From the NCBI RefSeq assembly GCF_030013205.1, contig NZ_CP122648.1: a DNA stretch of 64,000 nucleotides; one strand, 5' to 3'. Origin of the DNA: Escherichia coli. GTDB lineage: Bacteria; Pseudomonadota; Gammaproteobacteria; Enterobacterales; Enterobacteriaceae. Every line of letters starts with the position of its first letter. Position 1 is the stretch's first letter. Made by a program: the position numbers and the translations under genes. The notes beneath the pieces are model-generated. The model made no database searches. It saw only the letters and a list, made by a program, of their open reading frames with translations, and was not told the DNA's origin. Shown here piece after piece: positions 49,684-58,619 of this stretch.

Positions 49684-50178
49684 ATGTTTGACGGGAAAAG
49701 CATTCACTATCAGCAGGCCATTATTCAGAACGATGGATTCTGGCCGGATATTGATGCCGGCGATTTTGAAAAGAGCCGCAGTATCCCCGCCGTCACGTCA
49801 CACGAAACGGTGCTGACGGCTCTGCTTTGCGCAGTAACAGAGATTAACACTGAACTGGCTGCACGCCGTGAATACTGGCAGGAACAGGGCCACACCCGAG
49901 CCGCAGATATTCCGGGTTACACCGTGTTGCAACCAGAGCCACGCAATACGGATGCACAACCTGAACGGATGCAGAACCACATTACAGCACTGTACACCAA
50001 GGCTGTGTATGCACGCGCAAAGGCCGATCTTTTGCCGGAATCTGCCAGCGTGGGGCGGCGCGAGGCGCAGCCATCATCAGAAGCCAGCGAGAGCCGCCGG
50101 TCGTTGCTGGCTGAAGCGGCCATGGCGGTGCGGGCGCTGCTGGGCCGACCGCGTGCATCCATCGCACTGATTGATTAA
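49684..50178 (+). CDS. L: Head completion/stabilisation protein (P2 gpL-like)
   Basis: Start MFDGKSIHYQQAIIQNDGFWPDIDAGDFEKS...; internal to the track ORF. Confidence 0.7.
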   Translation: MFDGKSIHYQQAIIQNDGFWPDIDAGDFEKSRSIPAVTSHETVLTALLCAVTEINTELAARREYWQEQGHTRAADIPGYTVLQPEPRNTDAQPERMQNHITALYTKAVYARAKADLLPESASVGRREAQPSSEASESRRSLLAEAAMAVRALLGRPRASIALID

Positions 50179-50187
50179 GGAAATGGT

Positions 50188-50661
50188 ATGACGCAACTCG
50201 CCAGCCTGACGGCATTCATTGAAAACAATCTGCCGGCACGCGCACGCATTCCGTTCACCAGTGACATGGATGACATCACACTCGTTCCGTTTACGAAGTC
50301 GCTGGGGCACGGGCAGTTATGCACGCAGGTCCGAAAATATACGGCTTTTCTGCGATGGGACGCATGGCCCTATCGTCAGCTCAATCCGGATTTGGTGTTT
50401 TCTCTGGTTGAGGCCTGGCTGGCAGACAACGGCGGCGACCTGCGCCAGCGCCTGGCACCGGATGCGCCAGCCGTTGACGTCGAAGTGGATGATGAAAATG
50501 AAGTGGCATGGCTGGAAATCAGTCTGCCGCTGGTTGATCCCATCACCCTGGTTGAGGACGAAAACGGCCCCATCCCCAGAGGCGGGAAACGTTACCAGCT
50601 GGAAAAGCCTGAAATCTGGGTGGCCCAGACGCATCAGCTCCATTGCCAGGTAACGTCATGA
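50188..50661 (+). CDS. Hypothetical virion protein
   Basis: 157-aa ORF between the head-completion and morphogenesis genes. Confidence 0.45.
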   Translation: MTQLASLTAFIENNLPARARIPFTSDMDDITLVPFTKSLGHGQLCTQVRKYTAFLRWDAWPYRQLNPDLVFSLVEAWLADNGGDLRQRLAPDAPAVDVEVDDENEVAWLEISLPLVDPITLVEDENGPIPRGGKRYQLEKPEIWVAQTHQLHCQVTS

Positions 50662-51380
50662 TTCATTTTAACCTTAATCAGCCACATCTCAGGGATGTGC
50701 TGCGTGCCATTAACGAGGCGGAGTTATCACCGGCAAAGGCCAGGAAACTACTGGTTCGTATTGCGAAATACGGTTTGATCCCCGCAGCAAAGCGTAATGT
50801 GAAGAACCAGCGGACACCGGAGGGCGTCGCCTGGGCACCACGAAAAAGGCCGGATAAAGCCAGCGGCAAATATAAAAACAAAATGCTGCTGGGACTGCCG
50901 AAATTGATGGCCATCAGGGCTGACAATGACGGAAAAACGGTTCGCATCTATTTCAAAAAAGGGGATTACGCAACCCGCGTGCACGCAGGGGCAATTGCTC
51001 AGATACAGCAGAACGGAACCCGTATCACCCACAGAGGAAGCAGAAAGTGGAGTGCCGGCGTAATGGAAACCATGCGCGAACAACCGGCCACACGACGGCA
51101 GGCTCACCGCTTACTCTCGCTGGGATTTCTCGCCCCAACAGGAGCGGTCAACAAAAAAACCGGCCGCAGAAATTCTCGGAAACCATCCCTGAAATGGATT
51201 ATGGAAAACATGAGCAGACTACAGGCAGGTACGGTGATCAACATTCTTAAAGCTGAAGAAGCAAGGAATACCTGGGAAATCACCATTCCGGCCAGGACAT
51301 TCCTCGGAGCCAGCGGCGAAGAGTTTACCCGCATGCTGGAGGCGCAGCTGCGCAGCCTGCATCACGGCGGCACGAGATAA
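50658..51380 (+). CDS. Virion morphogenesis / tail completion-like protein
   Basis: MIHFNLNQPHLRDVLRAINEAELSPAKARKLL...; family call is tentative. Confidence 0.5.
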   Translation: MIHFNLNQPHLRDVLRAINEAELSPAKARKLLVRIAKYGLIPAAKRNVKNQRTPEGVAWAPRKRPDKASGKYKNKMLLGLPKLMAIRADNDGKTVRIYFKKGDYATRVHAGAIAQIQQNGTRITHRGSRKWSAGVMETMREQPATRRQAHRLLSLGFLAPTGAVNKKTGRRNSRKPSLKWIMENMSRLQAGTVINILKAEEARNTWEITIPARTFLGASGEEFTRMLEAQLRSLHHGGTR

Positions 51381-56470: not shown

Positions 56471-56810
56471 TAAACCGCTTTACATTGATTTGCTCATCAC
56501 CGGTCGCAATCTCACGCTGAACAGCGCCAGTGAGCCGGTGTTATGCAACAACAGAGAAAGTATTGCCCAGGACTGCCAGCACGCCATCATTGAGAGCGGA
56601 CTGGCAACGCGCCTGCTGGCTGAAAAAAGTCCGACGCTTCGTGCCGACATCATGATGCAGATGACGCTGCTGATTGAAGATGATGAGCGCATCACACCCG
56701 GCACGGTCAGTGTGACAGAAGAAACCCCGCTTTCTGGTCGCCTGCTGATTAGCGCCCACACCGAAGATTTTTTTGATCCCCTGACTTTTACGGTATCTCT
56801 TGATGATTAA
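56460..56810 (+). CDS. Baseplate-associated small protein (putative)
   Basis: MHTDKPLYIDLLITGRNLTLNSASEPVLCNN...; overlaps the tape-measure stop and the next gene start. Confidence 0.45.
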   Translation: MHTDKPLYIDLLITGRNLTLNSASEPVLCNNRESIAQDCQHAIIESGLATRLLAEKSPTLRADIMMQMTLLIEDDERITPGTVSVTEETPLSGRLLISAHTEDFFDPLTFTVSLDD

Positions 56811-57987
56811 CGGCAAACCCACCGCAGATTACGAGCGCATTCTGGCTGATAACGGCATGCCGGTAACAGAAGAACAGGCGCGCGCTGAATTTGAAGCCAT
56901 TGTCAAAGACGAAGGGCTTATCACCAACACATCCCACATGTCGCCGTTCTGGCGACTGATTACAGCTATCGCCACAAAACCCGTGATGTGGCTGAAAGAT
57001 GCGCTGGTTAATGTGGTGATGAAAAACCTGTTTCTGGCCGATGCCAGCGGTGTATTCGTTGATGTTTTTGCCTGGGCGGTAAACCTGCAACGCAAGGCCG
57101 CCACGCACGCAGCCGGCGTGATTCGTTTCACCAAGAACGACATTGATCGCGCAGTTACCGTGCCGGCCGGTACGCAGATTCAGACAGAACGCATTAACGG
57201 CGTGATTTATACGCTGACCGTTGTCAGGGATACCGTTATTCCGGCAGGAACACTCAGCATGAACATCGATGTTTCTGCGGAACAGGCCGGAGCCGGCTTT
57301 AACCTTGCGCCGGGATATTACCGCATCCTTCCGGTGGCGATTGATGGTATTGCCGGTGTTGAGAACGATGAAAACTGGCTGACCACACCGGGTGCCAACG
57401 AAGAAAGCGATGACGAGCTGCGTGATCGTGTTCGCAATCAGTTTAATCTTGCCGGCGCTTATCACACCGATGCAGTTTACCGGGGGTTAATTGCCGGCGT
57501 TGCCGGCATCAGTGCCGACCGCATCTATTTTCTGCATGACGCACCACGCGGCCCCGGCACAGCAAATGCTTACATTCTGCTGGATACCGGCATCGCATCC
57601 GAACCGTTCGTTGATGCAGTAAACGCATTCATTAACGATGAAGGTCATCACGGGCACGGTGATGATCTGCGCTGTTTTTCCATGCCTGAAACGCGCCACA
57701 CCCTGACCGTGACTCTCTGGCTGTATGCAACACTGAACCTCAGCGATGAGGAAATTCAGATGTTATTGCGCAATGTGGAAAACCTGGTTCGCTGCGCATT
57801 TCGCGAAAACAGCGATTATGACGTTCAGAAAACATGGCCGTACAGCCGTTTCAGCATGTCCAGACTGGGCGAAGAGATCCACCAGGTATTTCCACAGGTG
57901 GAGTCGGTTACGTTTTCTCTTCCGGATATTCTCAGTGATCTGGCCGTTCCTCGTCTGGAATCCCTTACTGTGGAGGTGAGCGCGTGA
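56800..57987 (+). CDS. Baseplate J-like protein
   Basis: 395-aa ORF upstream of the tail-fibre genes; family call tentative. Confidence 0.55.
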   Translation: MMINGKPTADYERILADNGMPVTEEQARAEFEAIVKDEGLITNTSHMSPFWRLITAIATKPVMWLKDALVNVVMKNLFLADASGVFVDVFAWAVNLQRKAATHAAGVIRFTKNDIDRAVTVPAGTQIQTERINGVIYTLTVVRDTVIPAGTLSMNIDVSAEQAGAGFNLAPGYYRILPVAIDGIAGVENDENWLTTPGANEESDDELRDRVRNQFNLAGAYHTDAVYRGLIAGVAGISADRIYFLHDAPRGPGTANAYILLDTGIASEPFVDAVNAFINDEGHHGHGDDLRCFSMPETRHTLTVTLWLYATLNLSDEEIQMLLRNVENLVRCAFRENSDYDVQKTWPYSRFSMSRLGEEIHQVFPQVESVTFSLPDILSDLAVPRLESLTVEVSA

Positions 57988-58619
57988 AACTTCCGGAGAT
58001 CCCTGAATTTCCGCTCCCCACCTGGATGAATAAAGGCGAGCCGTTAACGCTGGCACATTCATCGCATCGCTACTGGGAAAAGGTATACAGCTGGCTGACG
58101 TGGCCACTACAGCAGATTGATGTCGACACCTGCGCAGAGCCTTTACTTAACCTGCTGGCTTATCAGCGCAATATCACCCGATTTAAAGGTGAGCCGGTTT
58201 CGTTATTTCGCTTAAGAGTGAAACACGCGTTTATTAACGCTCAGGACTCTGGCGAACGCGCCGGCTTCGAACGCATCTTTAAGCGTCTTGGCGTGGGAGA
58301 CGTTAAAACACTGGAACGGCAACTGCAGCATGACTGGGACGTTATTTTACTGCGCATTAATGACACCCAGTTAAGTGAAAACAACGCGCTGATGATGCAG
58401 CTCGTGCGCCAGTATGGTCGTACCTGCAGGCGCTATTTCTTTCAGGTAATCAATACAACCACTGCCCGGCTGACAGCCGGCACATTTGATGGCCATTACA
58501 GGTATCACACAGCAGAAGCAACGGTGAGAAAGGACACCATCTGGTTAACCGCTTCGCTACAGGCAGGACATTACGGCCTGTCCGTGGAACATTACACATT
58601 ACAGGCAGATGAAGCATGA
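57984..58619 (+). CDS. Tail/baseplate protein (P2 gpI position)
   Basis: 211-aa ORF, overlapping starts and stops with neighbouring genes. Confidence 0.5.
   Translation: MKLPEIPEFPLPTWMNKGEPLTLAHSSHRYWEKVYSWLTWPLQQIDVDTCAEPLLNLLAYQRNITRFKGEPVSLFRLRVKHAFINAQDSGERAGFERIFKRLGVGDVKTLERQLQHDWDVILLRINDTQLSENNALMMQLVRQYGRTCRRYFFQVINTTTARLTAGTFDGHYRYHTAEATVRKDTIWLTASLQAGHYGLSVEHYTLQADEA

Follow-up and report, generated by a model that had tools for sequence, protein, structure and literature searches.

A probable HP1-subgroup late gene block in an Escherichia coli prophage, with a lysis cassette that lacks Rz/Rz1 and carries a small cationic peptide gene

How did head genes arranged as in phage P2 come to stand next to tail genes that do not resemble those of P2? 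This question is raised by a prophage gene block at positions 49684-58619 of a 64,000-nucleotide (nt) stretch of Escherichia coli DNA (assembly GCF_030013205.1, contig NZ_CP122648.1), which as a whole is referred to below as the window. A preliminary description had attributed the block to modular recombination between P2-like and other myovirus lineages. A deep discordance between head and tail does indeed exist; however, it is not specific to this locus but extends over a whole phage subgroup, and it has already been published. From gene order and protein comparisons, we consider it very probable that these positions belong to the late gene block of an intact prophage, about 34.5 kb in length, from the HP1 subgroup of the Peduoviridae, and that the layout is inherited and typical of that lineage. 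The only unusual part of the block is its lysis cassette, which has no spanin genes and contains a conserved gene for a cationic peptide of 35 residues. The layout of a P2 head with a foreign tail is thus a rediscovery of the HP1/P2 split, described since 2009 and reanalyzed in 2023. What is gained is a clean annotation of an uncharacterized E. coli prophage lineage that has no isolated representative, together with two points that are more valuable than the layout itself: the reading of the DUF6890 family given below, and the spanin-less cassette with its conserved peptide, which is a modest but directly testable lead.

Gene order and its conservation among relatives

Gene families were called with Pfam and PHROGs profiles (Table 1), and identities come from per-gene tblastn comparisons with HP1, SI7 and P2. 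Firstly, the order of the block matches that of the annotated phages HP1 and SI7 gene for gene, the HP1 counterpart being orf15 to orf35, with hol and lys between orf24 and orf26. The portal, terminase, scaffold and capsid genes lie just upstream of the interval, at 43924-49585, and Q and P on the minus strand followed by O, N, M and L is the P2 order; the Pfam calls and the maps of HP1 and P2 bear out what had been said of the portal, terminase, scaffold, capsid and head-completion genes. Several features of the HP1 subgroup are present: a P2-type capsid block with the portal and large terminase subunit (TerL) genes on one strand and those of the scaffold, major capsid protein (MCP), small terminase subunit (TerS) and gpL on the other; a DUF2586 sheath gene and an Orf24 tube gene directly after the gpR and gpS homologues; and tape measure, DUF2590, Baseplate_J, gpI-like and fibre genes behind the chaperone gene. 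Head and tail proteins are both nearer to HP1-group than to P2-group phages. The features of the P2 subgroup were not found: there is no sheath or tube of the FI/FII type, the lysis genes do not follow gpX, and V-W-J-I-H-G does not stand ahead of the F operon. HP1-like viruses have been defined partly by capsid genes in P2 order combined with tail genes that have no P2 similarity (Lavigne et al. 2009, PMC2771037).

Secondly, the arrangement is conserved well beyond the window. A tube-alignment scan of one genome per bacterial species gave 30 loci, in Enterobacterales and Pasteurellales, and in all 30 the sheath and tube genes are followed, after 0.8-1.5 kb, by the chaperone and tape measure genes. 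The lysis cassette lies between tube and chaperone in every one of the 36 loci compared. At least 585 relatives are present in IMG/VR; the best 80 were examined, and the order sheath-tube-lysis-chaperone-tape measure was found in all 78 that have a complete interval.

Comparison with known phages gives the same picture. HP1 and HP2 (Hpunavirus) and the HP1-like viruses K139, F108 and phiO18P have a portal-to-fibre gene order identical to that of the window. HP1 also shares gpR and gpS right after gpL, the position of the lysis cassette and the slippery site of the chaperone gene, at protein identities of 35-57%. It differs in having another holin, a lysozyme-type endolysin and Rz/Rz1, whereas the window has a Y-type holin, an M15 endolysin, a 35-amino acid (aa) open reading frame (ORF) and no spanin. 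The HP1 immunity region is of the CI/Cro type (PMC2771037), in contrast to the P2-type int and C of the window prophage, and host and GC content differ as well. The closest isolated relatives by sheath (55-57%) and TerL (55-60%) are SI7 (Irrigatiovirus), Cronobacter phage ESSI-2, the Escherichia phage ESSI2_ev group and Yersinia phage vB_YenM_324. These SI7-type enterobacterial phages have the gene order, M15 endolysin family, chaperone, DUF6890 and tape measure of the window but no nucleotide-level similarity to the prophage, and the cassette of SI7, holin-endolysin-Rz/Rz1 with directly overlapping holin and endolysin genes and no small ORF, is unlike that of the window.

P2 (Peduovirus) shares with the window prophage the Q,P / O,N,M,L block, an Ogr-type activator, int, the C repressor and the A replication protein, and in addition the gpR, gpS, J, I, T, H and G families, a gpY-type holin and a chaperone frameshift of the E/E' type. 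On the other hand, P2 FI, FII, E, U, D, V, W and X have no match in the window, and the P2 operon order, V-W-J-I-H-G and then FI-FII-E-T-U-D, is different. The P2 lysis cassette, Y-K-lysA-lysB-lysC with a lysozyme-type K, follows X and lies between L and R, whereas that of the window lies between tube and chaperone; a search with the P2 proteome found no homologues of X, K or lysA-C in the window. The placement of holin, 35-aa ORF and M15 endolysin between tube and chaperone instead of after gpX, as originally described, is therefore correct.

In the arrangement we propose, the portal and TerL genes would be expressed leftward, and the genes for scaffold, capsid, TerS, gpL, gpR, gpS, sheath, tube, lysis, chaperone, tape measure, baseplate and fibres rightward. 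By analogy with P2 biology, late transcription is presumably driven by the Ogr-type activator. The lysis cassette would be co-transcribed inside the tail operon, and lysis proteins would consequently build up together with the virion parts.

Some points weigh against this interpretation. No isolated phage has nucleotide similarity to the block, so the block is assigned to the HP1 subgroup by its protein identities (45-60%) and its synteny rather than by way of a named genus. Moreover, a strong hairpin between the endolysin and chaperone genes could split the block into two transcription units.

The sheath and tube proteins

The 382-aa and 151-aa proteins had been described as sheath-like and tube-like and as unlike P2 FI/FII. 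The sheath is 47% identical to HP1 orf23 and 56% to its SI7 counterpart, and the tube 51% to HP1 orf24. At the sequence level the dissimilarity to P2 is confirmed: tblastn between P2 FI/FII and the window sheath and tube gave no match in either direction, and hhalign of 21-sequence sheath and tube alignments against P2 FI and FII gave a probability of 0.2%, that is, no signal. Searching the PDB by sequence with the 21-sequence profiles produced chance matches only for the sheath and none for the tube. Because no solved structure was found in this way, we turned to structure prediction, and AlphaFold2 models were built from the same 21-sequence alignments.

Sheath and tube folds were returned. 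The sheath model has a mean predicted local distance difference test score (pLDDT) of 76, and its top Foldseek match in the PDB has an E-value of 3.6e-9 and a probability of 1.00. Its best 40 PDB matches are all contractile sheaths, among them those of DSY3957, Lin1278, phage 812, diffocin, Milano, AFP and PVC. The tube model (pLDDT 77) matches phage and diffocin tubes and Hcp with probabilities of 0.97-1.00, but with an E-value of only 4e-3 and a TM-score of about 0.45. Judging from these models, the 382-aa protein appears to be a genuine sheath and the 151-aa protein, somewhat less securely, a genuine tube, each of a family distinct from FI/FII. As to a donor lineage for the sheath, a Foldseek search of BFVD returned F108 (HP1-like) and then assorted sheaths, with no clear nearest outside lineage.

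Origin of the discordance between head and tail

One possible reading is a recent recombination in which the head came from a P2-like phage and the tail and lysis genes from a myovirus unrelated to it. Some of the data are in line with such a hybrid: P2 Q, P, O, N, M and L have tblastn matches in the window and FI, FII, E, U, D, V, W, J and I have none, and the integrase and C-type repressor (window 34046-35404), at 54% and 52% identity to P2, resemble it more closely than any structural gene does. However, the head proteins themselves are 10-18 percentage points nearer to HP1/SI7 than to P2. The portal is 54% identical to that of HP1, 49% to that of SI7 and 37% to P2 Q; for TerL the values are 53%, 55% and 44%, and for MCP 31%, 47% and 29%. 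On the tail side, the Baseplate J protein is 55% identical to that of HP1 and 60% to that of SI7 with no match in P2, the tape measure is 39% identical to HP1 orf27 and 25% to P2 T (E-value 4e-19), and the DUF2590 protein is 57% identical to that of HP1; for the Ogr-type activator the identity to the HP1 counterpart is 34%. The reciprocal search with the P2 proteome agrees that both head and tail are nearer to HP1/SI7 than to P2.

By TerL, the closest isolated phages are YenM_324, the ESSI-2 group, SI7 and the HP1-like phages of Aeromonas and Vibrio (54-60%), and the sheath has the same closest set (55-57%), so a comparison of the two sets reveals no head-tail junction in this prophage. The same junctions are found in more than 100 loci from two bacterial orders, and the gpR, gpS, J, I and T families are common to P2. 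In view of this, a recent hybrid is most improbable. The last of these observations also bears on the tail having been called 'non-P2': the sheath and tube indeed have no P2 match, but gpR, gpS, Baseplate_J, Tail_P2_I, the tape measure, the fibre and its assembly protein belong to families common to P2, and the tail is not wholly foreign to it. No standard P2 FI/FII and lysis orthologues in canonical order were found, and the observation itself stands.

The opposite possibility is that no module was ever exchanged, and that the HP1 sheath, tube and chaperone, though orthologous to FI, FII and E, have diverged past recognition, while the operons were rearranged within the lineage. The gene types and their local order (sheath, tube, frameshifting chaperone, tape measure; W-like, J, I, H, G) are those of the P2 F and V operons, echoed in permuted form, the sheath and tube have canonical folds, and tail genes R, S, J, I and T are still recognizably of the P2 family. 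Against this, the head proteins retain 25-44% identity to P2, whereas nothing is detectable for sheath and tube, even with profiles. In a 2023 analysis, the HP1/P2 split came out far deeper in tail than in head proteins, with the split in the sheath timetree far deeper than that of the portal (PMC10612066). The fold searches show no special affinity to any single lineage and hence are not decisive. We regard divergence without exchange as possible though doubtful. The mosaicism is thus either an old, lineage-wide and already described event or the outcome of extreme divergence, and the two are not separable here. In the inherited HP1-type layout that we favour, the dissimilarity of sheath and tube to P2 FI/FII would reflect the ancient, published split between the HP1 and P2 tail modules and not a recombination at this locus.

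Recent exchange appears to be limited to small pieces. Three of these depart from the otherwise uniform 45-60% identity to HP1-group phages. The first is the holin, which is 43% identical to P2 Y and 29% to the SI7 holin, with no match to HP1 hol. The second is the endolysin, with 80% identity to that of Salmonella phage SI7. The third comprises the fibre tip and its assembly protein: the C-terminal part of fibre 1 (59666-60541) is 41% identical to the C-terminus of P2 H, and fibre assembly protein 1 is 40% identical to P2 G over its full length. Since the integrase and the C repressor exceed all structural genes in their likeness to P2, the history of the immunity and integration module differs from that of the virion module. 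Together, this pattern of holin, endolysin, fibre, int and C is one of ordinary exchange at the level of cassettes.

A lysis cassette without spanins

In the other HP1-type loci examined, except for two IMG/VR contigs, the cassette reads holin-endolysin-Rz-Rz1; Rz has an N-terminal transmembrane domain (TMD), and the Rz1 gene encodes a lipobox and overlaps the chaperone gene's start as well as the Rz end. In the list of Kongari et al. (PMC6139136), HP1, HP2, K139 and phiO18P carry spanins and no P2-family phage is spanin-less. The cassette of the window lineage, in contrast, measures about 820-860 nt and has no Rz/Rz1. This lineage consists of the window, an E. albertii prophage (L010), an E. 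coli prophage with 72% identity (L007), a metagenome contig (L040) and eight IMG/VR contigs. When the whole prophage was scanned for lipoboxes in all frames, the positive control worked but no credible spanin was found, and tblastn searches of the prophage with Rz/Rz1 from four relatives did not find one either. These results suggest that the window sub-lineage has lost the Rz/Rz1 pair. A +1-frame ORF inside the endolysin gene (53500-53802) was considered as an embedded outer-membrane spanin and rejected, because it has no canonical lipobox and is also present in relatives with a real Rz1.

The two exceptional IMG/VR contigs (L088:3957-4584 and L112:3958-4585) have only a holin and an M15 endolysin in a tube-chaperone interval of 667-688 nt, with neither spanins nor the peptide ORF. 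They belong to a different HP1-type lineage and represent a second, independent spanin-less variant.

Could the missing spanins be a sign of decay, the element being a tailocin or another defective or domesticated prophage? Besides the absence of Rz/Rz1 here and in the two contigs that retain only holin and endolysin, it speaks for this idea that spanin-less holin/endolysin cassettes are described, in the part of the literature covered here, as serving non-lytic secretion in some bacteria. However, the head, packaging, tail, replication and integration genes are all intact. Three sub-lineages that have diverged to a synonymous distance (dS) of about 1 keep every structural gene, with ratios of nonsynonymous to synonymous substitution (dN/dS) of 0.03-0.17, which indicate strong purifying selection. 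Different strains furthermore carry the element at several places in the chromosome, and it is also found in viral contigs derived from metagenomes. A decaying element is accordingly very unlikely, and we rejected the tailocin or defective-prophage reading because of the intact genes for head, packaging, replication and integration that are under purifying selection.

The 35-residue peptide and its candidate role

The holin and endolysin genes, which overlap directly in other lineages, are separated in the window lineage by a gap of about 110 nt that is occupied by the peptide ORF. The ORF is preceded by a GAGGAG Shine-Dalgarno sequence 8 nt upstream, and its stop codon overlaps the endolysin ATG. 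Counterparts of 35-39 aa are present at L007:6314-6421, L010:6762-6869 and L040:5001-5120. The peptide of the window type (MLSRREQKAAAIAWKIIRALWYWLRKPQQPHKEQK) occurs as 50 variants on more than 1,000 contigs and is called 'hypothetical protein' in some records; those of L007 (MNTTDRQWRVIATLWRYGQALWRLWKKLRNSNRRE) and L040 (MKLTDRQQKRAAIAWKILRTLWRWLCKPQKTSKDKNETL) represent two further types. A profile search of 1.8 billion representative proteins returned exactly three clusters, all from this genomic position.

The three types are only 23-54% identical to each other, compared with 70-95% for the flanking genes. What is conserved is their length, a net charge of +7/+8, three or four tryptophans and an amphipathic helix. 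The window peptide has a net charge of +7 and a hydrophobic moment (muH) of 0.62 in its best 18-residue stretch, a value exceeded by 3.7% of shuffled sequences; the peptides of the two other lineages have charges of +7/+8 and muH values of 0.68-0.69. Over the full range of 0.62-0.69, the moment is exceeded by 1-4% of shuffles and is comparable to that of melittin and magainin. Its dN/dS is 0.25 (window versus L040), against 0.03-0.10 for the neighbouring genes, and one IMG/VR variant has an in-frame deletion of a single codon. The ORF, its Shine-Dalgarno sequence and the stop/start overlap are kept in three lineages at dS of about 1. We favour the view that the ORF is a real, weakly constrained gene.

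Across the sampled loci, the peptide and Rz/Rz1 never occur together: every locus with the peptide is without Rz/Rz1, and every locus with Rz/Rz1 is without the peptide. This raises the question whether the peptide takes the place of the spanins. The founding disruptin, gp28 of phage phiKT, is a 56-aa amphipathic protein of charge +7 from a spanin-less coliphage; it complements lambda Rz/Rz1 mutants and is almost without homologues (bioRxiv 10.1101/515445). In the literature covered here, phiKT gp28 is the only experimentally established disruptin. The phiKT cassette, endolysin gp27 - disruptin gp28 - holin gp29, resembles that of the window in that a gene for a +7 peptide lies between holin and endolysin and no spanin is present, and the window holin is homologous to the gp29 holin (blastp 1e-11). 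It differs in its reversed gene order, another endolysin family, the 56-aa length of gp28 and the fact that phiKT is a virulent podovirus. Smith-Waterman comparison of the peptide with gp28 gave scores of 17-19, equal to the shuffle means of 17-18, and hence no sequence similarity. It should be noted that the disruptin class is defined by function, not by sequence homology. Several traits of the class are found in the peptide: it is small and strongly cationic, is predicted to form an amphipathic helix, has neither signal sequence nor TMD, and its gene sits in the lysis cassette of a phage without a spanin of the two-component or the unimolecular kind.

By this analogy we tentatively propose, as a possibility that we hold to be less probable than not, that the HP1-type sub-lineage of E. 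coli and E. albertii replaced Rz/Rz1 with a peptide of 35-39 residues translationally coupled to the endolysin, which would make it a candidate second disruptin. With similar reserve, its role might be the breakage of the outer membrane at the last step of lysis, carried out by a peptide unrelated in sequence to gp28. Two observations argue against a disruptin. First, the two HP1-like contigs that have neither spanins nor the peptide (L088 and L112) indicate that the loss of spanins does not demand replacement by a peptide. Second, the constraint on the peptide sequence is weak. A role in the timing of lysis, or as an accessory or regulator of the holin or endolysin, is equally open, and the ORF could merely serve in translational coupling. 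If the proposal is true, the peptide would be an easily testable second disruptin in a genetically tractable temperate coliphage, with the Rz/Rz1-bearing sister lineages as built-in comparators.

The hairpin that follows the endolysin gene (53757-53788) has a folding energy (dG) of -20.7 kcal/mol and a z-score of -4.2, with none of 200 shuffled sequences being as stable, and is the best terminator-like site in the region from 46.7 to 58.7 kb. Its stem is maintained in L007 and L040 by compensatory changes, and spanin-bearing lineages have no space between the genes at this site. The hairpin could act as a terminator or attenuator, or else be a scar left by the removal of Rz/Rz1.

The chaperone frameshift and DUF6890

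The chaperone gene ends in GTA AAA AAA TAA, and 6 nt ahead of its stop codon it contains the slippery heptamer A_AAA_AAA (54099-54105). The -1 frame stays open over 63 codons as far as the tape measure ATG and includes the ORF annotated as DUF6890 (54150-54296). The heptamer (AAAAAAA or AAAAAAC), its spacing and an extension of 60-64 codons are present in 34 of the 36 loci, HP1 and SI7 among them, and conservation also extends to the residues upstream of the ATG annotated for DUF6890. The pattern is unannotated in the records of these loci, whereas the P2 E/E' site is annotated. It is of the same -1 type as lambda G/GT and P2 E/E+E', here recognized from the sequence. Most likely, then, DUF6890 is not a gene in its own right but the part that a -1 frameshift adds to the tail assembly chaperone. 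The Pfam family could probably be retired, which would correct the annotation of hundreds of prophages.

Gene map

Table 1. Features of the late block and its flanks in window coordinates.
Feature	Position	Strand	Family call or remark
Ogr/Delta-type zinc-finger late-gene activator	43601..43858	-	phrog_603 transcriptional regulator 3e-29; 'ogr/Delta-like zinc finger' in the Prokaryotic Genome Annotation Pipeline (PGAP)
Portal, gpQ type	43924..44958	-	PF04860
TerL, gpP type	44951..46738	-	PF03237, PF17289, PF06056
Capsid scaffold/protease, gpO type	46933..47829	+	PF05929, 6e-37
MCP, P2 family, gpN type	47844..48857	+	PF05125, 1.8e-83
TerS, gpM type	48875..49585	+	PF05944, 8e-37
Head completion / head-tail adaptor, gpL type	49684..50178	+	PF05926, 7.7e-29; phrog_71
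Tail terminator, P2 gpR family	50188..50661	+	PF06891, 4.6e-16; phrog_65
Tail completion, P2 gpS family	50658..51380	+	PF05069, 4.5e-09; phrog_26
Contractile tail sheath, 382 aa, HP1 orf23 / DUF2586	51399..52547	+	PF10758 7e-129; phrog_907 'tail sheath' 7e-149
Tail tube, 151 aa, HP1 orf24 family	52544..52999	+	PF10772 Phage_HP1_Orf24 1e-51; phrog_1182
Holin, two predicted TMDs, P2 gpY family (Phage_holin_3_2)	53003..53299	+	PF04550, 5.5e-28
Cationic amphipathic Trp-rich peptide ORF, 35 aa, MLSRREQKAAAIAWKIIRALWYWLRKPQQPHKEQK	53305..53412	+	not annotated by PGAP
Endolysin, M15 family metallopeptidase	53409..53750	+	PF13539 3e-11; phrog_1768; no signal or signal-arrest-release (SAR) segment
Hairpin, terminator- or attenuator-like	53757..53788	+	13-bp stem, pyrimidine-rich tail
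Tail assembly chaperone (Phage_TAC_10)	53815..54108	+	PF10963, 1.6e-26
Chaperone -1 frame extension, 63 codons	54105..54296	+	includes 'DUF6890' ORF 54150-54296, PF21830 3.5e-24
Tail tape measure	54296..56470	+	PF10145; phrog_28
DUF2590 baseplate-region protein, HP1 orf28 type	56460..56810	+	PF10761, 5.5e-36
Baseplate J-like wedge protein	56803..57987	+	PF04865 1.6e-31; phrog_6
Baseplate/tail protein, P2 gpI-like	57984..58619	+	PF09684 23.1 bits (barely above the cutoff of 20.6); phrog_1228 9e-82
Tail fibre 1, HP1/P2-type N-terminal collar, P2 gpH-like C-terminal half	58616..60544	+	PF12571, PF03406
Tail fibre assembly protein 1, P2 gpG-like	60547..61098	+	phrog_136
Second tail fibre gene	61105..62397	+	phrog_2636, phrog_13714
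Second fibre-assembly-type protein (DUF4376)	62397..62969	+	phrog_1141; PGAP DUF4376

The gpS-like gene probably starts at ATG 50658, where it overlaps the gpR stop codon as ATGA. In the identical sequence of E. coli strain ETEC4079, PGAP picks GTG 50697 instead; the genes of relatives begin at the equivalent overlap. At the map's right end (58616-62969), two cassettes of fibre plus assembly protein follow each other, the second made up of a 430-aa fibre and the DUF4376 protein. Such twin cassettes suggest a dual or alternative receptor specificity.

Host, extent and distribution of the prophage

The interval 49684-58619 is 100% identical to strain ETEC4079. According to the RefSeq annotation of that strain, the complete prophage measures about 34.5 kb and is flanked by pheA/pheL on one side and raiA on the other. 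It contains an integrase, a repressor of the P2 C type, a replication endonuclease, ParM-type partition genes and the Ogr/Delta zinc-finger activator, as well as the virion and lysis genes and a few cargo genes at its right end. In the window, the left edge of the prophage is near 34.0 kb, and its right part extends past the 3' end. Related copies, all chromosomal, are present in 46 of 5,426 complete E. coli genomes, a prevalence of about 1%, with enterotoxigenic (ETEC) and Shiga toxin-producing (STEC) strains among the carriers.

Megablast of the block against 50,697 phage records gave just two short matches with a coverage of at most 3%, and no match was found against plasmids; no isolated phage or plasmid carries this module. 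By ICTV practice, membership of a genus needs about 70% nucleotide identity to the type phage. In the phage collection searched, the best protein identities are below 60% and nucleotide matches cover at most 3%, so no named genus can accommodate the prophage. These comparisons would place it within the HP1 subgroup but outside every named genus of the collection, as a different, unnamed lineage of genus level.

The early region of the prophage (window 41581-42859) encodes a ParM-type segregation ATPase and a partition/stability protein. Such genes are unusual for an integrating phage of the P2 family, and may point to a plasmid-like phase or be stabilizing cargo. Past the 3' end of the window (L003:37067-38777), the cargo that adjoins raiA consists of genes for a Hok/Gef toxin, a TM2-domain protein, and a DNA methyltransferase together with a Com-like regulator. 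Far upstream of the prophage, at about 9000-14000 of the window, the GC content falls to 0.32-0.37, compared with about 0.50 around it, and this stretch may be another horizontally acquired island.

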